A stretch of DNA of 64,000 nt from Candidatus Bathyarchaeota archaeon (GCA_963833125.1 CAWHWX010000012.1:32001-96000); one strand, 5' to 3'; shown: positions 44,137-62,068, numbered from the stretch's first letter. Notes: generated from the letters alone by a model not told the origin. Translations and numbers: made by a program.

Positions 44137-45352
44137 TTAGGACGTTTCGATCGCTACGGGTTTGTCAGTTACCTCGCTGATCTGGTCTTCAATAGATGTC
44201 TTGTGCTTGAGGACATTCTTTGTCAGCTGGTCCATTCGTCGACGCAATTCTGAGTTATGAGCGGTGAGGGTCTCTTTCTCGCGGTGAATACTCGCTAAGG
44301 ATTGGTCCAATTGCTCCATTCTATCAAAAAGTCCAGAAGCCTTCAGCTGGCGAAGTGTTTCCTGGATATTCGCTTGAATCGCCAAATATTCTTCACGCAT
44401 TTTGTCGACGACGCCAGCCTTGAATTGTTGTATCACCTCTTCTGCTCTATGGAGCCTTCGTTCCTCGATATCTAGATCTCCGCGCGCCAGTTCATCGCTT
44501 AGTTGGTCGAGCAGTCGAGTCAAGGCAAATGTTTGTCCGCCTGCGACCGTATCTATCGTGATTATCAATCAGGCTGCGCAGCGTCCCAATATCCACGGTT
44601 TTGTTCCGGTTTGATGCGGCCTCTCGTTCGAGTTTTGTGAGGGGCTTGATTACCGGCTGGAAGAACTGCTTTATCTCGTCTCCTTTAGCTTGTAGCGAGT
44701 TCTCATAGCCTTTCAATTCAAGATATGCTTCCTCAGAAGCAACGTTCTCCTTAGCTGCCTGTATTTCCTTCTCTTTGCCTTTCAATTCTTCAAGAGAGTT
44801 AGTCTGTTCGTTCTCCTCGGCTCTGAGTTTCCGGAGTTCACTGTGCATCTGTGGTAGGAGTTGCGCATCTTTTTGCAGCAGCTCGAATTTATTTCCTGGG
44901 GATTCATCAAGCGCTTTACCCAATGAGCGAACGGCTGATTCCATCCTCCCTAGGGCAACATTAAGTGCCGCCATTTCAACTCGTAGTCCACGGCGGAGTT
45001 TGGGAAGGTACTTGCGAACGGTCTTTATGATTTTATTAAGCGCCTCAACAGAGTCATCGTGAAACTTCTCTAAGTCTTGGTAGCTTGTCGAGGTTTGTTG
45101 TCGAGAAAGATTCTTGGATGTTTCCTGGATCGTTTGTGCCATACGGGTTCCGTAATCTGAGGCGGACTTATCCATCGTTCCCCATGCGTTCCGAACAGCC
45201 GCCTCTAACCTAGACGCTGCGCTTTCAAGGCTATTGCACGCCTCCTTCACAGCCCTGGTTCTTTCGGCAAACCGTTTCTCATGTTCATTCATTACTTTGC
45301 GTTCTAACGATTGACAGAAATTAGGCAGGTCATCGACGCCAATATCCGTCAA
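44137..45352 (-). CDS. Coiled-coil protein (frameshift near 44570)
   Basis: Heptad-rich helical sequence over two overlapping ORFs. Confidence 0.7.
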
Positions 45353-45354
45353 TC

Positions 45355-46272
45355 CTATCCCGCCACTCGATTGTCCGTGTTTCCCGAAGTCGACGAATCC
45401 TCTTTCTGAGCGTCCTGACTTTGGATCCTAAGTCGGTCTAGAGAGGCCTCTACTGCTTGGCGAATTTGTTCGCAGACGCTTCTTCTAATCTCCAATCCAT
45501 CGTCTACCGTACTTTCTTTCAATTTCGCCAACTGCTGCCTTAACTCCGCTTCTTGCACGCTGACCTGTTTTCGTTTTTCCTGATAGTTAGATCTCAAGCC
45601 GTCCAGTTGTAGTTTGAGTTTCTCTTCCTTACCATGTAGGGCGCTTTTTTTCGATTGAAGCGAATGCGAGCTACCTTCAATTTTGACTTTCGACCTGCCG
45701 AGGATCCTGTCGAGCACGGTAGGCTTCTTGCGGAGCAGCTTCAGCCTTTCTGCATCGAGGGCATCAATCTCGCCGCGAATCTTATCTATGGATCTCTCAT
45801 ACCCTCTTCTCGCTTCATGTGTCCGGTTCCTTTGCTCTCTTTCCAGATCAGAAATTTCAACATCATATATCGACAACTGCTTTTGTAAATCCGTGACTTG
45901 AGTAGAGAGGGCCATCTCTCCCTCGATTCTCTTTGTGAGTTCGTTTCGTATATTCGTCATCAGCGTTGTTATCGTGGCCTCGTATTGCTTGTCCGCTGCA
46001 TCAGGTATGGAATCCTTGAAGTCGGCCAAGACACTCTCTATATCCTTCAACCAACGCTGGAAATGCTCGTAGAACGGAGGTAGGGCGAAGCGTTGGTTTC
46101 CTAAATGATCGAGCGCGTTCGTTATTCTTGATGAGACATCATGAGGGTTTACCGGGATTACTTCTTGATAGGGGAATGCGTTTTCTGGTCTAGTTCTTTC
46201 TTCTTTGAGGGCGGGTTTCTTCGTCGATGCTCTACGAGAGCGCATGCCGCGAGTACGTGGTTCGTAGCTCAT
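45355..46272 (-). CDS. Coiled-coil protein
   Basis: LGNQRFALPPFYEHF.RW head followed by a long heptad repeat. Confidence 0.75.
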   Translation of the reverse strand: MSYEPRTRGMRSRRASTKKPALKEERTRPENAFPYQEVIPVNPHDVSSRITNALDHLGNQRFALPPFYEHFQRWLKDIESVLADFKDSIPDAADKQYEATITTLMTNIRNELTKRIEGEMALSTQVTDLQKQLSIYDVEISDLEREQRNRTHEARRGYERSIDKIRGEIDALDAERLKLLRKKPTVLDRILGRSKVKIEGSSHSLQSKKSALHGKEEKLKLQLDGLRSNYQEKRKQVSVQEAELRQQLAKLKESTVDDGLEIRRSVCEQIRQAVEASLDRLRIQSQDAQKEDSSTSGNTDNRVAG

Positions 46273-46323
46273 GGTTGGTCCGTTCGATTTTCTCTGTATA
46301 TATGTAAAGCGTGAGTCGGCGTT

Positions 46324-46873
46324 CTAGTGGCTCTCAGGGCTCCTTAGCCAATAGTGGCGTATCGTTAAACCTGCGACTATTCCGCCTGCGTGGGCCAGAA
46401 AACCGCCACCCGCGAAGACATTCAATCCGATGAATAAGATCATACCGACGAGTCCCTTCCAGCCTCCCGCTGCCGCAAGCAGTCCAAATATTGCCCCGGA
46501 GGCACCCACGCCTATCGCGTTGCCTCCAAGAAAGAGGAACGCAATATTCCCAGCCAGTCCACTTGCGAAATATGTAACTAACCATTTCTTTCTTGAGACT
46601 TGCTCCTCGAGAGAGGTTCCGAAGATTAGGAGAAACAGTACGTTTCCACCGAGGTGTGAAGGGTTCGCGTGAAGGAATAACGATGTGAACAGCATCCACA
46701 CTGCGCCTTGCCAAACAGCTGAATTTACTTGAGCAAGCGGGTAGAACACATCGTAATTAAGGGAAAGCAAGTTGCCGCCAACAATCCCCGTAATCAAATA
46801 AACAACAATCAGCGACGCCTGACATTAGCACTGACGGAGAATCTCTGATTCTAGAATTTCGCTGCTCCGCCAT
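46324..46873 (-). CDS. Rhomboid intramembrane serine protease (5' frameshift)
   Basis: LFTSLFLH...HL.GN, VGASGAIFG, AH.GG. Confidence 0.9.
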
Positions 46874-54902: not shown

Positions 54903-56558
54903 TTGGGGTCTTCAGGGCGATTGCTAGCGATTATTGCCTTATCCATCATGTTCGCCGCTCTCCATGTATCCTACGCATTTGCTGACAACAGCTACACAGT
55001 TACTATCACAGTTCAGGGTTTACCGTCTTCCCTTTCAACGAAAGTCTACGTTGATGGGAGTTATAATGGAACACTGAGCGGTGGGAGCTCAGACACGTTA
55101 ACGCTTTCAATAAATGACAACCCGCATGCCATCTTGGTTGATTCTTATGTGCAAGGGACCGGAAATGGGACACGATATTACGAGAATGATACAGTGTGGG
55201 GTATCAGCTCACCAGGCAGCCATATGTTCACTTACGTCGCTCAATATTTTCTGTCCGTGGAAACCGCCTTTAGCTCAGCTACAGGCCAATCGTGGTACAA
55301 CGCAGGTTCGACTGCTCAGGCCGTGCTTAACGATCAACAAATTGTCGAGGGGCAAGGAACGCGAAACATATTCACAGGTTGGTCTGGCGACGCGACAGGG
55401 ACGCAATTGACTTCGAATGCAATAATTATGGACGGACCAAAGGTCGCAACCGCGAATTGGAAAACCCAGTTTTACTTAACCATTGAATCTAACCCAGCGA
55501 ACGTCACTAGCTTGACAGGTTCTGGGTGGTATGATTCGGGCGTAGACGCTAACTTTTCTGCTGTTATGGTAGCGTCTGGGACATCGAATACGCGCTTGGA
55601 GTTCGATCATTGGAGCGGTGAATACACAGGGCAGCAACCTTCGGGGATGGTGTTGATGGATCGTCCAAAAATTGTCAGTGCCAATTATCTTGTTCAATAC
55701 CTTCTGACCGTTATGTACTCCTCACCGAGCGTTTCATCCTCATACAACGAGACTCACGCAGGTTGGTACGCTGCGAATTCTAGCGTGCAACTCGGGCCCG
55801 CACCATCAATTATCAATTTGAGTACCGTGGAGCGGTTGCGATTTATCGGTTGGTCTGACAACGGTTCTGTATCGAAGAATCTATCGTACTCTGTTTTGGT
55901 AGTTGGGCCACTAAACGTAACTCTCTCCTACACGACGCAATACTATGTTGACGTACGCTCTACATACGGAACGGCTTCCGGTTCGGGTTGGTACGATCGA
56001 GGGACAACCGCAACGATTACCTCCCCAACTACTTCAGGCACCTGGCCCGTTTCGTATGCGCTGACCGGGTGGAGCGTTGACCCGCCCACCGGAACTCTGA
56101 ACAGTACAGAGAATTCGTGGATGTTAACCGTCAATGGGCCATACGTAGTACAGGCAGAATGGGGAGTAGATTACGTCCCACTGATCCTGCTCTTTGGCGG
56201 GAGCGCCGTCGCGTTTGCTGCTGTGGGAGTTACTGCGGTGGTAGTTCACAGGAGGAGTAAAGTTACCGGCAGATCTACTGCTCCTCGCCCGCAAAAAACC
56301 GGCCAGGCTATGTTAGGGTCGCTGGTAGTTTGCAACAGTTGCGGTAACAATGTGCCGAAGGGCGCGGAGTTCTGCGAGAAATGCGGAGCCCCGATCGCGC
56401 CACTCATCGAACCTTCAACGGAGAATAAGGTATACGACTACATCGTAAAACACGAGGGTATAATTTCCTTGAGCGAAGCATCAGCAGATCTTGCGATACC
56501 TGTTGAGCAGCTAAAGGAAATAACTGAGCGTTTGAAGAGAGAGGGCCGTTTAAGTTAG
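54903..56558 (+). CDS. Single-pass membrane protein: extracellular beta repeats, TM, zinc ribbon, C-terminal wHTH (PCI-like)
   Basis: Signal peptide; four QY(F/Y)L.V..GSGWY..G / F.GWS repeats; TM; CNSCG..FCEKCG; VYDYI.KH.G.IS.SEA..DL.I. Confidence 0.8.
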   Translation: MGSSGRLLAIIALSIMFAALHVSYAFADNSYTVTITVQGLPSSLSTKVYVDGSYNGTLSGGSSDTLTLSINDNPHAILVDSYVQGTGNGTRYYENDTVWGISSPGSHMFTYVAQYFLSVETAFSSATGQSWYNAGSTAQAVLNDQQIVEGQGTRNIFTGWSGDATGTQLTSNAIIMDGPKVATANWKTQFYLTIESNPANVTSLTGSGWYDSGVDANFSAVMVASGTSNTRLEFDHWSGEYTGQQPSGMVLMDRPKIVSANYLVQYLLTVMYSSPSVSSSYNETHAGWYAANSSVQLGPAPSIINLSTVERLRFIGWSDNGSVSKNLSYSVLVVGPLNVTLSYTTQYYVDVRSTYGTASGSGWYDRGTTATITSPTTSGTWPVSYALTGWSVDPPTGTLNSTENSWMLTVNGPYVVQAEWGVDYVPLILLFGGSAVAFAAVGVTAVVVHRRSKVTGRSTAPRPQKTGQAMLGSLVVCNSCGNNVPKGAEFCEKCGAPIAPLIEPSTENKVYDYIVKHEGIISLSEASADLAIPVEQLKEITERLKREGRLS

Positions 56559-56995
56559 AAGAACGGATTCATGCCGTGTTCTGGTTGCTGGTACGTCGCC
56601 GGGTACTGTTGGTATTGGTACGGTTGGTACTGCTGTTGGTACTGCTGGGACTGCGCACTGAACTTCGGAGCTAGGCTCCAATAGCATTCCATGCAGAAGC
56701 TTAGAACTCCGTATTGCTTGTTGCAACCTGCACAAATCGACCTGCCGCACCGCGAACAAACAAATGCAGATGGTAGGTCATGGTGGTAGTAGCAGCTGCC
56801 CGGAGTTTGGATCTGTCTGGGAGTGTACATTGGAGGGGCTCGTGGGGTTGGAACGGTCTGGCCAGTTAATGGGGATTTCACTTCAACTTTGACTGGGGGA
56901 AATCTTGAAAGTGCAGTGCCGCAACTGAAACAGAATCGTGCGTCCTCGGCGTTTGGTCTGCCGCATGATTGACAGGGAATCATATTCCGAACCAC
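56555..56995 (-). CDS. Zinc ribbon + B-box-like zinc finger protein with Q/Y-rich tail
   Basis: CQSCG..N..DA.FC.SCG; C-x2-H-x8-C-x2-C-x4-C-x2-C-x9-C-x2-C; PPMY. Confidence 0.8.
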   Translation of the reverse strand: MVRNMIPCQSCGRPNAEDARFCFSCGTALSRFPPVKVEVKSPLTGQTVPTPRAPPMYTPRQIQTPGSCYYHHDLPSAFVCSRCGRSICAGCNKQYGVLSFCMECYWSLAPKFSAQSQQYQQQYQPYQYQQYPATYQQPEHGMNPFF

Positions 56996-57142
56996 TAAGC
57001 AAGTGTTTGTAGGCCGTTCTTAACGATTGCCCATTGAGAGAAGGCACGTGGATGGTTCGATTTCCCCATAGAAGCATGGAGTTAGGAAGGTTAGGTGGGA
57101 GGGAGTGTGTGAGAAACTGACATGAATATTTCAAAATCGATG

Positions 57143-58393
57143 TTAAGTCAATCGAAGTATTGATTCATGGAGTTCTTGGTTCTTGCCCTCAGCCAAGACT
57201 CTCAGGTAATCCCCCCGCTTGCCAGCCCTACGAAGTGGTGATTTACCCTCTATTTTCCGTGTCCCCTCCGAGTTTTCGGCGAAAATCGTGAGCTCTCCAT
57301 CCCCAAGGTTAGACGCTTTACGAATTGATTCTTCTACCGTGGCCTTAGCAGCACGTGGGCTATCTAGCGGTAGGTCGTTTCGCGGGACGACGATCCTTCC
57401 CGTTCCGTCCTTCCCGCAAACAATGCATCGCACGCTTCGTTTGAGATCCATGGTGCTGTAGCGGTTGTTCTTGAGATCGACGAACAGGATTGATCTGAGC
57501 GGTTGACCAGTTGTTTCAGGCCACTTCGTGGTTGTCTTGTATGCCTCTAAACCGAGGATTACTTTGACCGCTTCTTGTGCGAGGATAGACGAGACTAGGG
57601 AAATTGATGTCGCAAAGGAAGGAACGGTTTCTTGTTCCAGGGGTCCCTCGCATGGGTTGCGGAGGCCGGCGATGCTCGAATACTGGTTCGCGGGAAACAT
57701 GCAAACTGGGCAAGCGTCATCGGGTGGTAGGTAGGAGTGAACCCTTCCGTTCAATCCAATAATTCCCGCGTCGATCAGAGGAATTGAGTATTTTCGGCAG
57801 GTTTGAGTAAGGAAGATTCGTGAGACGACATTGTCTAAACCGCAAACGATCACTTGGGAGTCCAGGTAAAGTTTCAATGGCATACGTTCGAGATCGCCGC
57901 GGTAAGCGGTCGTTGTTACGAATGGATACTTCAGATGAAGGTTCTTAGCCAAAAATTCGGCCTTGTTCCTGCCTAAGTCTTTAGGTTGGAAGAAGATCAT
58001 TCGGCTTACGTTTGAGAGTTCGATACGGTCGCGGTCAACAATTACGATTCTCCCGACTCCCAGCATGGCGAGGTTTTTAGCAGCCTCGTTACCTATAGCC
58101 CCCGCGCCCGCCAAAAGCACCGTTGCGCTTCGAATCTTCTTCTGTCCTTCGGCGCCCCAGACAAGTAGTTGCCGAGCCCAGAGATAGTCTAGGATGATTG
58201 GGTCCTTTTCGGTTTTGAGTTTGGCAACGGTTGATGTTTCTGCCAGTCGCTTACCGTGGAACAGGCATTTTGTAAGGTCAGATTCTATGCCTAGTTTTCT
58301 ACAGGCTAATTGTTTGAATTCCCTGATCGTTCTTGTAGGGGGTAGATCAATCTCAATTTCCTTATACCGCGGGATAGACGCACGAAGTTTCAT
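57143..58393 (-). CDS. Ubiquitin-activating E1-like enzyme (ThiF family) with N-terminal ubiquitin-like domain
   Basis: GAGAIG, D.DRIELSN..R, CGLDN..SR, CPVC/CIVC zinc pair, putative catalytic RNPC; N-terminal beta-grasp pattern (TIREFKQ....LGI......LFHGKRL). Confidence 0.9.
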   Translation of the reverse strand: MKLRASIPRYKEIEIDLPPTRTIREFKQLACRKLGIESDLTKCLFHGKRLAETSTVAKLKTEKDPIILDYLWARQLLVWGAEGQKKIRSATVLLAGAGAIGNEAAKNLAMLGVGRIVIVDRDRIELSNVSRMIFFQPKDLGRNKAEFLAKNLHLKYPFVTTTAYRGDLERMPLKLYLDSQVIVCGLDNVVSRIFLTQTCRKYSIPLIDAGIIGLNGRVHSYLPPDDACPVCMFPANQYSSIAGLRNPCEGPLEQETVPSFATSISLVSSILAQEAVKVILGLEAYKTTTKWPETTGQPLRSILFVDLKNNRYSTMDLKRSVRCIVCGKDGTGRIVVPRNDLPLDSPRAAKATVEESIRKASNLGDGELTIFAENSEGTRKIEGKSPLRRAGKRGDYLRVLAEGKNQELHESILRLT

Positions 58394-58986
58394 TATCGCG
58401 GCGTCCGATTGCCCTTACCGGGGATGGTGAACGTCACTAAATCACCAGGTTGAGAGAGTACCGTTGGGGCTCTCGGGATAGGGACTATGTTGAAGTGAAC
58501 GGTATCGTCCGATTCCTCTTTCGCTTTGTGCCTAGTCATTCTCGGAAACCCATGTGATCGGCAAACGTCGGCAGCTTTCAAGGCGCGGGGGTTATCGAAA
58601 ACACTTTGTGGGTTCGGGTCCGTTAGGAGGTAGTGTAGTGAATTGACGACCGAAATTAGTTTGAGCCGTGGGTCCCATTTTTCTCCGAGGACAGATACGC
58701 AAACTGCGTTTGGTATGTTCGGGACAATATTCGGGTGAGAGATATCGGTGAGCCAAGTCGCCACGGGAGGCTTCAATGGATATTCGGGTGGCAGGTCGAG
58801 TTTGAATCGATTCCAGTTCACGTACTCGGTGAAGGGCCAGACTCCTTTCTCGGCAAGTCGTCTCACCTCTCCTTTCTCGCACCGGATTAGGCCCTCGAAT
58901 TGGGTAGGGGGGTCATTTAGCGCTGTGATTGTCGGGAATTGGTGGTTGAGGAGGCTCTTCTCCTTGTAAAGCAGGGTAGCGTCCAA
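58393..58986 (-). CDS. Ubiquitin-conjugating enzyme E2
   Basis: F.L.LP.EYP.KPP...W.T.I.HPNI......VC.SVL...W.P...L..V..SL..LL.DPNP. Confidence 0.93.
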   Translation of the reverse strand: MDATLLYKEKSLLNHQFPTITALNDPPTQFEGLIRCEKGEVRRLAEKGVWPFTEYVNWNRFKLDLPPEYPLKPPVATWLTDISHPNIVPNIPNAVCVSVLGEKWDPRLKLISVVNSLHYLLTDPNPQSVFDNPRALKAADVCRSHGFPRMTRHKAKEESDDTVHFNIVPIPRAPTVLSQPGDLVTFTIPGKGNRTPR

Positions 58987-58998
58987 GCGGTTTCAGCC

Positions 58999-59241
58999 CT
59001 ACCCGCCAATTATGTTGTATGGCATGAGGGCGAGTTGCGCATTTTCTGGAATGCCGGATCTCGCTACGGTAGTGCCTTCGTCTAATATTGCGCCTCCGTA
59101 CATGAGAGCGACCGTTGTTGGGTCAACCCCAAATGACGTACACACCTGCTGCTTAATCTCTGCAACCGTGTGGTCAGGGATTACGTCGATCTCTGCCAGA
59201 CCTGTCTGAGGGCCTATGGGGGCTTGAATGAATAATTTCAT
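58999..59241 (-). CDS. Ubiquitin-like modifier ending in GG
   Basis: 80 aa: IDV.P..TVAEIK..., LMYGG.IL.E..TV...GI...A.L.L, C-terminal IIGG-stop. Confidence 0.9.
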   Translation of the reverse strand: MKLFIQAPIGPQTGLAEIDVIPDHTVAEIKQQVCTSFGVDPTTVALMYGGAILDEGTTVARSGIPENAQLALMPYNIIGG

Positions 59242-59296
59242 CTTCTATCGTTCACCTCCACTCATGCTGCCTTGTCTCTCCATATAGGAGCCTAAA

Positions 59297-60835
59297 CTAC
59301 CTTACTGTAAGCTCGACAGTTAGGGCGTGTACGAGCCCGCCTCCAACTGCCTCTATCGTGATAGGGTAGGTCCCTCCCTTTGTAAAGGCTGGTATTGTTA
59401 TTTGGATTGTTATTGTAGTCGTTCCGGGGCCTCCAGGTAGAACAGTCGGGTTGCTTGTCAAGGTATACTTTGCTCCTTGAGGGAGGTTCAGCAAGGTTAT
59501 GTTCACAGGGTCTACGAACCCTTTTTGGAGAGTTAACCTAAGATTAAGTGTCGCCTTTGAACCGGTCTGTACTGTGACACTGGTTGGCGAGATTTGCAGT
59601 GAGAAATCGGCTACCGTTATGTTAAGTACTGTTTGTCTGGTTACATACGGTGATTGAGAGGGTAGGTAGTCGGCAATCAGAGCTATTGGATAGGTGCCGT
59701 TAGGGGTAGTCGAGTCTGCGGTCACATTCAAGCTCACGGTTGTTCCTGTAGGAGCAGGGTTTGTCGAGAATGTGATCGTTAAGCCGCTGGGGTTTCCGTT
59801 GGCCGAGAGCTGGACTTGTTGTGCGAACTCATTGATTGACACTATCTGGATCTTTGTGACTGCATACCTCGTTCTGTACACTGTGAGCGAGCTGGTTTGT
59901 GGTAGGATGTTGAAATCCGCAATGACGATGTGGTATGTGTTCGTGTTGACTTGCTTGCCTGTAGAATCTGATGCTCTGATGTAGTAGGTGATGTTTCCGG
60001 TCACCTGATTACTTGGGATGACGTAGCTGAATTCTCCGGTCCCAATCGAATTCATGGGGACTTGTGTGGTTGGGCCCTCGGTTGCTGGGCCATAAACCAA
60101 GGTTACGTTATGCGCAGGACCAGTTGTGTTGGCAGTAATCGTAATTGGTGTTCCAATGGTCCCTACCGAGACGGGGTTATGAATGATGGCTACCGACGAT
60201 TGCGGGGATGTCTTGTAACTATAGATTAGGCCTCCAAATACTGCCAGCAACACAACCAGAACAACCAAGACCATGGCCAGCGCTGCACGCTTTGTCAGGA
60301 CTTGTCGTGCAGGTGGTCGTCGTCTGACTTCTACAGTCGGCGTGGGCGCTACAACCGTAGCTGTCGTTTGACGCGGTGGGGTGGCGTCCTTTGGATCAGA
60401 GTAAACTATTATGTTCGCTTCGGGGATCCGAATGGCTTTGTCAGTTCCTGGGATCACCCTGAAGTATCCGACTTCTCCGTTTCTTGAATCAACCACCAAG
60501 CCTGTAATCAATGCTGAGAATTGCTGTAACTTTTTTTGAGTTGAAATGTCCGTCTCGGAAAAGAATAATCCATCCCTAGTGTGTGAGTGGTACCATCCTA
60601 CGATGTTGCCTTTGAGGCGTCCAGAAACGAGTTGATCGGCTATGATTGCTATGGAGCCGGGCGGTAGTGTGGCGCGATGAGGTTCGGATGAGAATTCATG
60701 AGTGGTTGAGTCTTCGATGATTATTGTGTCGTCTTGGAGTTTGCCGAGTAGTAGCCCAATAATCTCGGTTTCGGTGTCCCGTGCAGCTTGGACAATCCTG
60801 TCCTTGACAGGTTTCGAGATGCTGACGTAGGACAT
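59297..60835 (-). CDS. JAB/MPN+ (JAMM) metalloprotease fused to TM and extracellular Ig-like domains
   Basis: EIIGLLLG...GWYHSH-x7-S-x2-D; TM at about aa 185-207; two DF.L..SP.S.TV..G..A..GTYPI beta-sandwich repeats. Confidence 0.9.
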   Translation of the reverse strand: MSYVSISKPVKDRIVQAARDTETEIIGLLLGKLQDDTIIIEDSTTHEFSSEPHRATLPPGSIAIIADQLVSGRLKGNIVGWYHSHTRDGLFFSETDISTQKKLQQFSALITGLVVDSRNGEVGYFRVIPGTDKAIRIPEANIIVYSDPKDATPPRQTTATVVAPTPTVEVRRRPPARQVLTKRAALAMVLVVLVVLLAVFGGLIYSYKTSPQSSVAIIHNPVSVGTIGTPITITANTTGPAHNVTLVYGPATEGPTTQVPMNSIGTGEFSYVIPSNQVTGNITYYIRASDSTGKQVNTNTYHIVIADFNILPQTSSLTVYRTRYAVTKIQIVSINEFAQQVQLSANGNPSGLTITFSTNPAPTGTTVSLNVTADSTTPNGTYPIALIADYLPSQSPYVTRQTVLNITVADFSLQISPTSVTVQTGSKATLNLRLTLQKGFVDPVNITLLNLPQGAKYTLTSNPTVLPGGPGTTTITIQITIPAFTKGGTYPITIEAVGGGLVHALTVELTVR

Positions 60836-61187
60836 GAGTTTGTTTCCCTTTACTTTCTTATCTTATAGCTTGATTGGATGGCCTAATCTTTCGACATAGG
60901 ATGATATGGATTACGCGGTTTCCTGGCGTCCATCTGGGCATTGTATAGAGTGAAGCACAAGATGGGGAGCTGCAGTCTAGCGTTGTGAAGCATGGTTCAA
61001 AGCGAACAGATGTTATTGGGCCCGGGTTAATGGAACAACAGAATCATGGATTAGGGACAGCTTGTGGATGTTTGAAACTATCCAGCAGTTCTAACAATCT
61101 TTTCGGACTGAAGCTCACTAGTCAGCTTTAGGGCTCGCTGGTCCCCACTGGAGACTGAGCGTCCCGGAAGTTTACAGGGAAGAAGTG

Positions 61188-61205
61188 AAAGATAAGAAAA
61201 AAAAA
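61188..61205 (-). terminator. Oligo-T terminator candidate
   Basis: T9 tract on the minus strand about 20 nt after the 61226 stop. Confidence 0.5.
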
Positions 61206-61225
61206 TTTGGGGGTGCCCTACGCTT

Positions 61226-62068
61226 CTATCGTCCAAGCATGCCGAGTATTCCGCCCAGCACACCTAAGACGAAGCCGGCCACAAAGCCTCCACCGATTAT
61301 GAGGCTTAGCACTGCCATCGGGAAGACGACGATGCTTCCGATTGTTCCGTAGCCAAGCAGCATCAGTATTGACCCGATTACCAGTATTAGCCCTATGATT
61401 ACGCCGATTGCGAATGATAGGCTAGCAGGGCCGAGTGCTGGCAACCAGAAGAATACTCCGACCCACATCGCGTAGAACCCAGGCGCAAGCAAAGCTGCTG
61501 CGTTGAGGATTACAAGTATCCCAGCGATTACTGAGAGAATGAATCCCCATAGTGATCTGGGTGACGAGGGGGCGTACATTGGCGGTGGTGGATACACTGG
61601 GTAGGCAGCTGCTGGTGGAGCCATCGGTGGTGGACCGAATGCTGGTCCAGCCATAGGTGGAGCCATCATAGGTGGCGCTGCCATAGGCGGTTGGCTATAG
61701 GATTGAGCCATTGGCTGTTGGGGCGGGCTATAGGCGGCTTGTGCTGGTTGTTGTGCTACCATTGGAACGACTCCTGCGTAACATTGCGGGCACAGGACGA
61801 GATCCATGTATGCTTTTGAGTCATCGCAACAAATCGACCTTCCACAGCGGTTGCAGACGTATACTGCTGGGAGGTTGGGGTGATAATAGCATTGTCCTGG
61901 TGCGGGCACACGAATAGGTCCGCCTTGGCTGACTGGTGTTACTACGCGGACGGATGGGACTGGTTTGAGTGAGGGGACCGCGCTGCCTGCGAGAGATGCT
62001 CCACAGCTTGAACAGAATGATGCGTCATCACGATTGTTGTAGCCGCATGATGGGCATTTCTTGACCAT
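61226..62068 (-). CDS. Zinc ribbon + B-box-like + Pro-rich linker + multi-TM membrane protein
   Basis: CPSCG..N..DA.FC.SCG; CYYH-x8-CNRC-x4-C-x2-D-x9-CPQC; PPPPMY; C-terminal hydrophobic helices ending GGGF..GF.LG.LGGILG. Confidence 0.82.
   Translation of the reverse strand: MVKKCPSCGYNNRDDASFCSSCGASLAGSAVPSLKPVPSVRVVTPVSQGGPIRVPAPGQCYYHPNLPAVYVCNRCGRSICCDDSKAYMDLVLCPQCYAGVVPMVAQQPAQAAYSPPQQPMAQSYSQPPMAAPPMMAPPMAGPAFGPPPMAPPAAAYPVYPPPPMYAPSSPRSLWGFILSVIAGILVILNAAALLAPGFYAMWVGVFFWLPALGPASLSFAIGVIIGLILVIGSILMLLGYGTIGSIVVFPMAVLSLIIGGGFVAGFVLGVLGGILGMLGR

Follow-up and report, generated by a model that had tools for sequence, protein, structure and literature searches.

The window analysed here is a 64,000-nucleotide stretch of a Bathyarchaeia metagenome-assembled genome that is 87.8% complete. 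One group of its genes raises the question of whether these archaea possess a eukaryote-type ubiquitylation pathway, and which protein in it takes the part of the small RING ligase encoded in other archaeal ubiquitin operons. We put the probability at about 0.55 that the locus is a working eukaryote-type ubiquitylation cassette in a Bathyarchaeia-specific form, with B-box proteins replacing the RING.

Composition and conservation of the cassette

Six co-oriented open reading frames had been claimed for the locus, and all six are present on the minus strand. Together with a convergent gene and a short sequence element, they are as follows.

61226-62068, minus strand: ZnR-B-box-4TM protein, 280 aa (Pfam Zn_Ribbon_1, weak zf-B_box, hydrophobic C-terminal half)
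61195-61209, minus strand: T-rich run just 3' of the ZnR-B-box-4TM stop codon (sequence)
59297-60835, minus strand: membrane-anchored Rpn11-like JAMM protease (JAMM-TM-3xIg), 512 aa (Pfam JAB, motif, AF2, Foldseek)
58999-59241, minus strand: ubiquitin homologue (Ub), 80 aa (Pfam ubiquitin, GG end)
58393-58986, minus strand: E2 with UBC fold, 197 aa (UQ_con, HPN and Cys96)
57143-58393, minus strand: Ubl-fused E1, 416 aa (ThiF and N-terminal ubiquitin domain)
56555-56995, minus strand: soluble ZnR-B-box protein, 146 aa (zinc ribbon and B-box-like eight-ligand motif)
54903-56558, plus strand: convergent membrane protein with wHTH-like tail, 551 aa (sequence features, synteny)

From the ZnR-B-box-4TM gene through the soluble ZnR-B-box gene, the intergenic gaps measure 390, 55, 12, -1 and 147 bases, the E2 and E1 genes sharing one base; the end of the convergent gene overlaps that of the soluble ZnR-B-box gene by four bases. 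Using the E2, we retrieved 29 related loci that have the same block. Ub is encoded in all 29, the JAMM-TM protein in 28, E1 in 27 (the other two are cut by contig ends), the upstream ZnR-B-box-TM protein in 26 (L016 and L009 are without it) and the wHTH-tail membrane protein in 25. The soluble ZnR-B-box gene is present in 21 of the 25 loci that reach past E1, the loci without it being L021, L025, L027 and L028. Because the same order recurs in related loci, the arrangement is not due to chance. A reciprocal search with the ZnR-B-box profile returned 64 loci, 47 of which have Ub, E2 and E1 within 6 kb; in a sample of the class, each of the 54 genomes with UQ_con above the cut-off also matched the ZnR-B-box-TM profile. 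Even L087 and L101, the variants that have diverged furthest, retain the B-box gene. The convergent membrane protein, with its zinc ribbon and wHTH-like tail, is also part of the gene set.

The domain identities and catalytic motifs of the conjugation enzymes are established along with the gene order. Ub (Pfam ubiquitin, 2.2e-9) is encoded in mature form, with GG as its C-terminus, and contains only two lysines, K2 and K30; GG is terminal in 22 of 30 homologues and is followed by 1-5 residues in the other 8. In the E2 (UQ_con, 3e-16), H84, P85, N86 and Cys96 are invariant in all 25 aligned homologues, and the C-terminal tail is conserved, with FNIVPVP and DIVRFxI motifs. The nearest solved relatives of this protein are eukaryotic E2s (about 1e-12). 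It matches the Pfam model over positions 48-122 of 140 only, whereas Caldiarchaeum-type E2s match the same model over positions 2-139. The E1 (ThiF, 9.4e-50) consists of a ubiquitin-like domain at about residues 1-70 (1.1e-6; 28.8 bits, cut-off 25.4), a ThiF/UBA1-like adenylation domain at 72-330 that holds a Cys4 zinc site, and a C-terminal region at 335-416. Residues G96, G98, D120, D122, R131, K144, D187 and D208, as well as the Cys4 site, are common to all four Caldiarchaeum-type E1s compared. Cys248, invariant in 23 of 23 Bathyarchaeia-type E1s, is the candidate catalytic cysteine. The nearest solved relative of the E1 is human UBA1 (1.6e-33), followed by ThiF (1.2e-21).

Two other roles for such an E1 have to be weighed. 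The locus might serve antiviral defence of the bacterial ubiquitin-like kind (Bil, CBASS Cap2/Cap3, 6E/6A-MBL). Indeed, the E1 gives partial matches to the PADLOC models E1-E2 (Cap2-like, best 3.2e-19) and BilD (2.4e-8) and matches NCBIfam 6A-MBL cap2_3 at 1.4e-10, and the surface domains of the cassette evolve fast. However, the PADLOC matches are confined to the E1 adenylation domain, with the JAMM protein reaching only 0.004 and the E2, Ub and both B-box proteins giving none; the cap2_3 score is 40.3 bits against a cut-off of 320; and the locus lies in conserved synteny of a housekeeping kind, with neighbours that by eye resemble a Holliday-junction resolvase, a thioredoxin and an ArsR-type regulator recurring across many genomes. 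The cassette is present in 12 of the 13 genomes sampled from the genus, and Ub is 79-99% identical across the 29 loci. We consider a defence function very unlikely. A sulfur-carrier or SAMP/Urm1-type system, in which the E1 and a beta-grasp protein would act in thiolation or E2-independent sampylation, has in our judgement scarcely any likelihood. It would suit the ThiF/MoeB adenylation fold and Cys4 zinc site of the E1, but not the presence of a strongly conserved UBC-fold E2 with HPN and Cys, nor the fact that UBA1 rather than ThiF is the best solved relative of the E1. The NCBIfam scores for ThiF, MoeB and SAMP-E1 lie far under their cut-offs (UbaA, 87.7 bits against 450), that for desampylase is 23.2 bits against 130, and a Pfam search found no rhodanese domain.

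The anchored protease and its convergent neighbour

The JAMM-TM-Ig protein (Pfam JAB, 3.6e-11) has an intact JAMM motif, H-x-H-x7-S-x2-D, at residue 83. Its AF2 model (pLDDT 84) comprises a JAB fold at residues 1-145, a disordered linker, a transmembrane helix at 182-209 and three beta-sandwich domains at 216-512. Foldseek with this model matched Ig tandems and CSN5/Rpn11, the JAMM domain aligning with Rpn11 5u4p_B at TM 0.78, and the best PDB sequence match is the Caldiarchaeum Rpn11-like protein 6fjv (1.2e-11). Six Arg/Lys residues stand just before the transmembrane helix and one just after it, so that the N-terminus is read as inside; the JAB domain is thus predicted to be cytoplasmic and the three Ig-like domains extracellular.

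Among the 28 loci with the gene, the JAMM motif is intact in 23, and in the other 5 the TM-Ig gene has lost its JAMM domain. In five loci (L012, L015-L018) the Ig ectodomain has been exchanged for a six-helix membrane module, and in L101 the JAMM protein is soluble and the ectodomain absent. Tethering of the protease is therefore dispensable, as the lost JAMM domains and the soluble protein of L101 indicate. The original prediction of a membrane orientation holds in that three conserved components are membrane proteins with zinc or JAMM modules on the predicted cytoplasmic side, but anchoring of the JAMM protein is not universal. It had also set this protease against the soluble Rpn11-like enzyme of known operons; that contrast needs qualifying, in that a second, soluble Rpn11-like JAMM paralogue is encoded elsewhere in the host genome.

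The convergent protein begins with a signal-like N-terminus and an InlB B-repeat ectodomain, followed by a transmembrane helix, a cytoplasmic zinc ribbon and the wHTH-like C-terminal tail. Across its family the tail is conserved and the ectodomain is not, and in L087 the tail exists as a free-standing protein of 110 aa.

The cassette could also relay an extracellular signal, as the original prediction suggested. In this reading the two ectodomains, Ig-like in the JAMM protein and built of InlB repeats in its neighbour, would sense the outside and switch ubiquitylation or deubiquitylation inside, possibly with the wHTH-like tail released or controlled as a membrane-tethered regulator. The one-pass topology, joining folded ectodomains to cytoplasmic catalytic or zinc modules, is receptor-like; among closer relatives, sequence change is faster in the ectodomains than in the JAB domain (for example, in L005-L014, identity is 38-58% in the Ig region vs 58-77% in the JAB domain); and the retention and separate occurrence of the tail would fit a regulator. 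Nevertheless, the ectodomain is swapped in five loci and absent from L101, so that it is the anchor, not a particular sensor, that is kept. Moreover, Pfam recognised no ligand-binding family in the Ig region and, at E<=0.1, no HTH family in the tail. We consider such a relay improbable.

A zinc protein at the position of the small RING ligase

Sources on the ubiquitin operon of Caldiarchaeum subterraneum are Nunoura 2011 (PMC3082918), Hennell James 2017 (PMC5654768) and Fuchs 2018 (PMC6043591). In this Candidatus species (Aigarchaeota/Caldarchaeales) the operon comprises ub-e2-e1-srfp, with rpn11 set apart. Compared with four loci of this type (L043-L046), the Bathyarchaeia cassette has the same order of Ub, E2 and E1, an adjoining Rpn11-like JAMM gene and, immediately past E1, a small zinc-finger gene; both types also share the adenylation residues and the zinc site of the E1. 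Identity between corresponding parts is only 27-39% (E2, 34%; Ub, 27-33%; JAMM, 36%; E1, 34-39% over the adenylation domain). There are further differences. Where the Caldiarchaeum type has a RING-H2 protein, Bathyarchaeia have the ZnR-B-box protein and a second, membrane-anchored copy; the Caldiarchaeum-type JAMM is soluble and divergently transcribed, whereas that of Bathyarchaeia is co-directional, membrane-tethered and equipped with Ig-like ectodomains; and the Bathyarchaeia E1 has an N-terminal Ubl that the four compared E1s are without (alignments with them begin at residue 72) and a short crossover loop where they have an insertion of about 55 residues. Asgard archaea, by the descriptions in PMC5654768 and PMC10936438, likewise cluster eukaryote-like Ub, E1 and E2 genes, but with a RING-type E3 and ESCRT links as Asgard features. 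Saw et al. 2015 (PMC4571567) noted ubiquitin modifier genes in single-cell genomes of MCG/Bathyarchaeota, which belong to the phylum-level group of the present host; the relevant passages describe no architecture and mention neither a B-box nor a membrane-anchored JAMM nor a Ubl-E1 fusion.

That a RING-H2 protein went undetected is established for the genomes searched. Neither zf-RING_2 nor an srfp protein query gave a match in the host genome (87.8% complete), and zf-RING_2 gave none in five further E2-bearing Bathyarchaeia genomes (96-100% complete); as a positive control, the same RING model found 2 matches per genome in 4 of 4 Caldiarchaeum-type genomes. The parts list and the absence of this RING bear out the claim of a eukaryote-like cassette unlike the Caldiarchaeum and Asgard types. 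The accompanying claim that there is no RING E3 stands for RING-H2 in the host and all five further genomes, but is partly a matter of wording, because the B-box is itself RING-like and the soluble copy occupies the place of the small RING (srfp) gene of Caldiarchaeum-type operons, directly after E1. We also considered the B-box as a diverged srfp. In hhalign the B-box family and srfp matched with a probability of 20% and in the zinc ribbon only; because the B-box region gave no match, we rejected this derivation.

The two zinc proteins that bracket the cassette carry a probable B-box, the B-box being a RING-like cross-brace zinc domain; the assignment is based on eight invariant zinc ligands, zf-B_box matches and a cross-brace-like fold. 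In the ZnR-B-box-4TM protein (Zn_Ribbon_1, 2.2e-8), an N-terminal zinc ribbon, C-x2-C-x3-N-x6-C-x2-C, is joined by a conserved linker, KPVPSVRVVTP, to a B-box-like domain, C-x2-H-x8-C-x2-C-x4-C-x2-D-x9-C-x2-C, after which come a Pro-rich spacer, four hydrophobic helices and a Gly-rich GGGFVAGFVLGVLGGILGMLGR segment. In the soluble family, ligands C68, H71, C80, C83, C88, C91, C101 and C104 are invariant in all 19 members. Most copies of the membrane paralogue have Asp as the sixth ligand, L020 and L032 having Cys instead; Asp is able to serve as a B-box ligand. All 19 soluble-family and all 21 membrane-family members match zf-B_box at E<=0.1 (best 6.1e-7 and 4.2e-5, respectively), with the window copies scoring 16.2 (soluble) and 13.5 bits (membrane), both below the PF00643 cut-off of 24.1. 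The AF2 model of the soluble protein has a pLDDT of about 90 within the B-box domain, residues 58-112 of which gave weak fold matches to FYVE, Slp, RIM, piggyBac cross-brace and PHD domains (Z 3.6-4.4). The 50 fold matches listed for the ZnR-B-box model include no B-box chain, and Foldseek with the B-box model returned nothing at E<=1e-3.

In L035 and L038, B-box paralogues are also encoded away from the operon, and more distant relatives are found in non-ubiquitin contexts, fused to DnaJ, DUF4097, wHTH or kinase modules. Prokaryotic B-boxes were reportedly described by Burroughs, Iyer and Aravind 2011 as binuclear RING-like treble-clef domains, often on membrane-associated proteins. In animals, MID1 B-box1 and TRIM16 exemplify a B-box that promotes ubiquitin transfer from an E2 without a RING. 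The homology of the Bathyarchaeia proteins to these is only at the level of domain class, as they have neither the coiled coil nor the TRIM architecture. Prokaryotic B-boxes have been tied to membrane-protein folding, stability and proteolysis, and eukaryotic ones alone to ubiquitin, in the summary given in PMC4506424; in Bathyarchaeia, by contrast, the B-box is a constant part of an operon for E1, E2 and Ub. The soluble ZnR-B-box protein, in the srfp position, is the candidate E3 or adaptor.

An E3 may not be needed at all, however. If ubiquitin went straight from the E2 to its target, both ZnR-B-box proteins and the zinc-ribbon tail protein could be ubiquitin receptors, scaffolds or substrates. 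The E1/E2 pair of Caldiarchaeum indeed auto-ubiquitylates its E2, according to the account in PMC5654768. All three proteins bear the same kind of zinc ribbon, spaced as in RanBP2/NZF fingers. When modelled, residues 1-32 align with the NZF fingers of Npl4 (Z 3.1) and TAB2 (Z 3.0) and with the MDM2 ZnF (Z 3.7), and 5 of 19 and 6 of 21 members weakly match Pfam Zn_ribbon_RanBP. These Z scores are low, though, and NZF fingers contact ubiquitin through a Thr-Phe dipeptide where these ribbons have Gly-Arg or Gly-Tyr. The B-box, with its eight ligands, is the most conserved portion of the ZnR-B-box proteins, which would be unexpected for a mere substrate, and the soluble copy takes the srfp position. 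We regard transfer without an E3 as unlikely, though deserving serious consideration.

A proposed ubiquitin cycle at the membrane

For a cassette with B-box proteins in place of the RING, we infer the following enzymatic steps. The E1 would adenylate the C-terminal Gly of the ready-made Ub-GG, load Ub onto Cys248 and hand it to Cys96 of the E2. The soluble and four-helix membrane ZnR-B-box proteins, standing in for the small RING ligase of Caldiarchaeum and Asgard operons, would serve as E3-like adaptors, guiding E2~Ub to its targets. The Rpn11-like JAMM, held at the cytoplasmic face of the membrane, would take the tag off there and might also trim the short C-terminal Ub extensions found in some relatives. 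Conjugation and deconjugation would thereby be concentrated at the inner membrane face. Judging from this layout, cytoplasmic tails of membrane proteins are the likely targets, and the syntenic zinc-ribbon/wHTH-tail protein is one candidate.

A more far-reaching version is doubtful: that the ZnR-B-box proteins are true E3s in a membrane-centred Ub cycle, which marks the tails of envelope proteins, the membrane-tethered wHTH regulator among them, for turnover or processing, and in which the anchored, surface-exposed Rpn11 reverses the mark. If it were true, ubiquitin transfer driven by a B-box, which a few TRIM-type proteins of animals are known to perform, would be older than the eukaryotes, and the cassette would represent, in a prokaryote, an equivalent of ubiquitin-dependent quality control of membrane proteins and of the regulated release of membrane-bound transcription factors.

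As to expression, the T-rich run may mark the transcript end of the ZnR-B-box-4TM gene. It is a weak hint, by which that gene would be a transcription unit apart from JAMM-Ub-E2-E1. RNA-library contigs of three runs stop at 61209/61210, and those of relatives span Ub, the Ub-E2 junction and both B-box genes; these are assembled contigs from one study, at 90-99% identity, in which DNA carry-over is possible.

Gene content, conservation and possible expression of the operon

Six open reading frames (ORFs) on the minus strand occupy positions 56555-62068, with intergenic gaps of 390, 55, 12, -1 and 147 bases. A plus-strand gene converges on them and overlaps the end of the soluble zinc ribbon-B-box (ZnR-B-box) gene by 4 bases. 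The layout of the six ORFs and their Pfam/NCBIfam domain matches bear out the gene set of the original prediction, a co-oriented ubiquitin (Ub) operon with a membrane-anchored JAMM protease between two zinc-finger proteins, and that description is therefore correct.

Genes of the ubiquitin operon and the convergent gene, with domain matches
61226-62068, minus strand: ZnR-B-box-TM, 280 aa; N-terminal zinc ribbon (2.2e-8), weak B-box match, hydrophobic C-terminal half (Pfam/NCBIfam)
59297-60835, minus strand: JAMM-TM, 512 aa; JAB/MPN domain (3.6e-11; Pfam/NCBIfam)
58999-59241, minus strand: Ub, 80 aa; ubiquitin family (2.2e-9), C-terminal Gly-Gly (Pfam/NCBIfam)
58393-58986, minus strand: E2, 197 aa; UQ_con (3e-16; Pfam/NCBIfam)
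57143-58393, minus strand: E1, 416 aa; ThiF family (9.4e-50); residues 1-70 a ubiquitin-family domain (Ubl; 1.1e-6, above cut-off)
56555-56995, minus strand: soluble ZnR-B-box protein, 146 aa; zinc ribbon and weak B-box match (Pfam/NCBIfam)
54903-56558, plus strand: convergent membrane protein; signal-like N-terminus, InlB B-repeats (8.7e-10), TM segment, zinc ribbon, C-terminal tail; predicted cytoplasmic part at residues ~455-551

Synteny was scored by tblastn with the window proteins in 29 homologous loci (L-numbers) fetched via the E2; here as in the genome surveys the counts carry no statistic, because related genomes are not independent. Ub was found in all 29 loci (79-99% identity) and E1 in 27, with L029 and L032 stopping short of it. 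The JAMM-TM gene was present in 28, with no copy upstream of Ub in L009, and the upstream ZnR-B-box-TM gene in 26 (none in L005, L009 or L016). Among the 25 loci reaching past E1, 21 carry the soluble ZnR-B-box gene, which is absent from L021, L025, L027 and L028; the convergent tail protein was found in 25 of the 29. Contigs with close E2 relatives are nearly all titled as Bathyarchaeia or Bathyarchaeota MAGs, and the reverse search, with a profile of the soluble B-box protein, returned 66 loci, again nearly all from Bathyarchaeia. Ub, E2 and E1 lie within 6 kb in 47 of the 64 new loci, and many of the remaining 17 are cut by a nearby contig end. Loci L005, L007 and L011 from the E2 search and L056 from the B-box search bear bacterial MAG names (Nitrospiraceae, Acidiferrales, Acidoferrum, Methylomirabilota); these contigs hold the same archaeal block, and mis-binning in the public records probably explains their labels.

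In an even sample of the class, UQ_con matched 55 of 301 genomes, 54 of them above cut-off; within the window's genus it matched 12 of 13. A ZnR-B-box-TM profile matched every one of the 54 genomes and 78 of the 301 altogether, the 24 extra matches being mostly weak or to the four-helix module only. Phylum-wide, 68 of 401 sampled genomes had UQ_con; among them are members of four families outside the class, whose matches are full-length (~1e-30).

Ub, E2, the Ubl-bearing E1 and a ZnR-B-box protein are kept in all the variants of the B-box type described here. On a contig titled Thermoprotei (L087:9028-9903, minus strand), Ub and E2 form a single 291-aa ORF in which the E2 begins straight after Gly-Gly; this cluster also has a membrane-anchored JAMM protein and a B-box protein with a single TM helix, and a separate 110-aa protein (L087:10950-11282) consists of the wHTH-like tail domain. 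A divergent cluster of the B-box type (L101:226-3819), on a contig that is titled Methanomassiliicoccales and may be mis-binned, encodes a JAMM that is soluble (246 aa), a Ub extended by 10 residues, a 101-aa ZnR-B-box protein and a 400-aa E2 whose C-terminal half is repetitive.

Metatranscriptome contigs of 90-99% identity occur in four runs of one study labelled as a peat metagenome. All four runs have cover of the ZnR-B-box-TM gene and of Ub, and run X1 also of the Ub-E2 junction (58860-59103) and part of the soluble B-box gene; contigs from three runs end at 61209/61210, before the T-run that follows the ZnR-B-box-TM stop codon. The convergent gene and the greater part of both E1 and the JAMM gene lie outside this cover, which is uninformative on their expression. 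Coming from relatives, and with DNA carry-over possible, the contigs give no more than a hint that the operon is expressed. A sigma-70 promoter and terminator scan, a model not applicable to an archaeon, found fewer sites than in shuffles.

The predicted conjugation enzymes and membrane-bound protease

Judged from their sequences, the enzymes look functional and eukaryote-like. In the E2, residues H84, P85, N86 and C96 are invariant in all 25 aligned homologues, and the best solved relatives are eukaryotic E2s (~1e-12). The protein matches the core of the Pfam model only, positions 48-122 of 140, compared with positions 2-139 for Caldiarchaeum-type E2s; its conserved C-terminal tail contains two beta-strand-like motifs. 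Human UBA1 is the best solved relative of the E1 (1.6e-33), followed by ThiF (1.2e-21), and the adenylation residues and Cys4 zinc site are common to four Caldiarchaeum-type E1s. All 23 aligned Bathyarchaeia-type E1s conserve Cys248, which lies in an RNPC motif in the crossover loop, and we infer that it is the catalytic cysteine. Ub has two lysines only: K30 is found in 30 of 30 homologues, and residue 2 is Lys or Arg. The C-terminus is GG in 22 of the 30 and carries 1-5 extra residues in the other 8; the copy in the window has IIGG as its last four residues.

The operon protease has an intact JAMM motif, HSHTRDGLFFSETD. Among solved structures it is closest to the Caldiarchaeum Rpn11-like protein 6fjv (1.2e-11), with CSN5 and Rpn11 next. 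An AF2 model of JAMM-TM (pLDDT 84) comprises a JAB fold at residues 1-145, a disordered linker, a TM helix at 182-209 and three beta-sandwich domains, and Foldseek matched it to Ig tandems and to CSN5/Rpn11. Flanking the helix are six basic residues on the N-terminal side and one on the C-terminal side, a distribution from which the protease is predicted to lie inside, in the cytoplasm, and the Ig domains outside. The TM-Ig part of the gene is swapped for a six-helix module in L012 and L015-L018, and a TM-Ig gene without the JAMM motif occurs in L019, L022, L029, L030 and L031. The original prediction had proposed that the system acts on membrane proteins or relays an extracellular signal. We lean modestly towards a membrane-centred function; relay of an extracellular signal we regard as unlikely.

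Another contig of the host genome, C16, encodes a soluble 145-aa Rpn11-like JAMM (L042:1384-1821, minus strand) with 41% identity to the operon JAB domain; its best solved relative is 6fjv too (5.8e-11). Of the host's two Rpn11-like proteases, one is thus membrane-bound and the other soluble.

Zinc-finger proteins in the position of the RING ligase

Four control regions (L043-L046), taken from genomes of the UQ_con-bearing families outside the class, show the published Caldiarchaeum arrangement of a divergent soluble Rpn11 (202-266 aa), Ub (78-88 aa), E2 and E1 (388-399 aa). A RING-H2 gene of 75-80 aa directly follows E1 in three of them, and the fourth has RING genes elsewhere. Their proteins are 27-39% identical to the window proteins. 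Unlike the window E1, these four Caldiarchaeum-type E1s have no N-terminal Ubl, since the alignments begin at window E1 residue 72, and relative to it they carry an insertion of ~55 residues in the crossover region.

The zf-RING_2 model and a protein query with srfp, the small RING-H2 finger protein (E3) of the Caldiarchaeum-type operon, found nothing in the host genome (3.07 Mb in 39 contigs, 87.8% complete) and two genes in each of the four controls; zf-RING_2 also found none in five further E2-bearing Bathyarchaeia genomes (96-100% complete). Prok-RING_1 gave sub-threshold matches only in five genomes, and none in the host. With all controls positive, the lack of RING-H2 matches in the host and the five further genomes supports, as regards RING-H2, the original prediction that the system has no RING E3. 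Given this absence and the gene position, the small zinc-finger slot after E1 is thus filled by the ZnR-B-box gene. The B-box could have been a diverged srfp RING; when the B-box family was compared with three Caldiarchaeum-type srfp RINGs by hhalign, the zinc ribbon alone aligned, at a probability of 20%, and this profile-profile comparison showed no link between the two zinc-finger families. At the sequence level, the change from RING to ZnR-B-box looks like replacement rather than divergence.

In the soluble family, the zinc ribbon residues C8, C11, C22 and C25 and the B-box residues C68, H71, C80, C83, C88, C91, C101 and C104 are invariant in 19 of 19 members; the membrane paralogue mostly has Asp as its sixth ligand, with Cys in two copies. 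Pfam zf-B_box scored 16.2 bits on the soluble and 13.5 bits on the membrane copy of the window, below the cut-off of 24.1, and at E<=0.1 it matched all 19 soluble (best 6.1e-7) and all 21 membrane family members (best 4.2e-5). Prok-RING_1 matched 18 of the 21 membrane paralogues (best 1.3e-3); these matches are given no weight here. Both zinc domains of the soluble protein are modelled by AF2 with pLDDT ~90. Residues 58-112 of the model align weakly (Z 3.6-4.4) to FYVE, Slp/RIM, piggyBac cross-brace and PHD domains, which agrees with a cross-brace domain without proving it; residues 1-32 align to RanBP2/NZF/MDM2 fingers (Z ~3-3.7). Foldseek with the B-box model against the PDB returned nothing at E<=1e-3. 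A complex prediction of E2 1-155 with soluble B-box 28-112, run without controls, scored 0.00 and speaks neither for nor against binding.

A B-box-only profile matched 381 cluster representatives at E<=1e-3, and 57 at E<=1e-10, among 1.84 billion proteins. Ten long matches, hand-picked from 150 listed, carry DnaJ, FGE-sulfatase, DUF4097, wHTH or WD40-kinase modules. Pfam zf-B_box matches four of them at E<=1e-3; by this mix of modules and matches, the domain therefore belongs to a scattered prokaryotic B-box assemblage. A passage of PMC4506424 summarising Burroughs et al. 2011 ties prokaryotic B-boxes to the folding and proteolytic breakdown of membrane proteins rather than to ubiquitin. Protein P0031 (983 aa) combines WD40 propellers, an InlB B-repeat, a close relative of the operon's B-box (4.4e-15) and a Ser/Thr kinase domain, and shows this B-box type in a further membrane-signalling setting.

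Proposed system, significance and related loci

The best-supported explanation of the operon is a working E1-E2 ubiquitin cascade in which the ZnR-B-box proteins would serve as E3-like adaptors and the Rpn11-like protease would act at the inner face of the membrane. We put the probability that a true conjugation system exists at about 0.9; for an E3 role of the B-box the odds are even. Readings of the operon as a defence system or as a sulfur-carrier system fit poorly and were set aside.

Archaeal ubiquitin operons are the best models for the origin of the eukaryotic ubiquitin system, and to our knowledge the only one reconstituted so far is that of Caldiarchaeum, which is RING-based and fully soluble. 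The operon described here belongs to a second, widespread archaeal lineage, in which B-box proteins take the RING's place, E1 is fused to a Ubl domain, and both the deubiquitylase and one of the candidate ligases are membrane-anchored. Should the B-box proteins prove to be ligases, RING and B-box E3 functions would have separated before eukaryotes arose; should the system target membrane proteins, there would also be an archaeal precedent for ubiquitin control of the cell envelope. The parts are small and lie in one cluster, and a soluble core (Ub, E2, E1, the 146-aa B-box protein and JAB 1-150) is amenable to in vitro work.

Ubiquitin genes in Bathyarchaeota are already known, and passages of PMC4571567 have recorded ubiquitin-system genes of MCG/Bathyarchaeota in print since 2015. 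The full-text literature searched holds no description of the B-box/membrane architecture; the supplementary survey of PMC5654768 ('Cluster III') may include such clusters.

The host genome has two further B-box paralogues outside the operon. On contig C18 (L035:1056-1665, minus strand), an ORF with a B-box but no zinc ribbon overlaps, in a different frame, one that encodes four helices similar to the membrane paralogue's tail, and may be a frameshifted or split copy; contig C16 encodes a 114-aa ZnR and B-box-like protein (L038:1261-1605, minus strand). An 809-aa protein on contig C34 (L112:678-3107, plus strand) has operon modules in a different order: signal peptide, large ectodomain containing Ig-like repeats, TM helix, cytoplasmic zinc ribbon, Pro-rich spacer and four-helix Gly-rich module, the last being that of the ZnR-B-box-TM protein. 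Similar proteins of ~800 aa occur in related genomes.

Elsewhere in the window lie a complete archaeal 16S-23S rRNA operon (20720-25498, plus strand; SSU 20720-22269, LSU 22445-25498), which accounts for the rise in GC to 0.54-0.56 at 20-26 kb, and an archaeal RNase P RNA (15434-15729, minus strand). At 44137-46797 on the minus strand, three consecutive charged, coiled-coil-like ORFs (143, 286 and 305 aa) are followed by a 157-aa polytopic membrane ORF.
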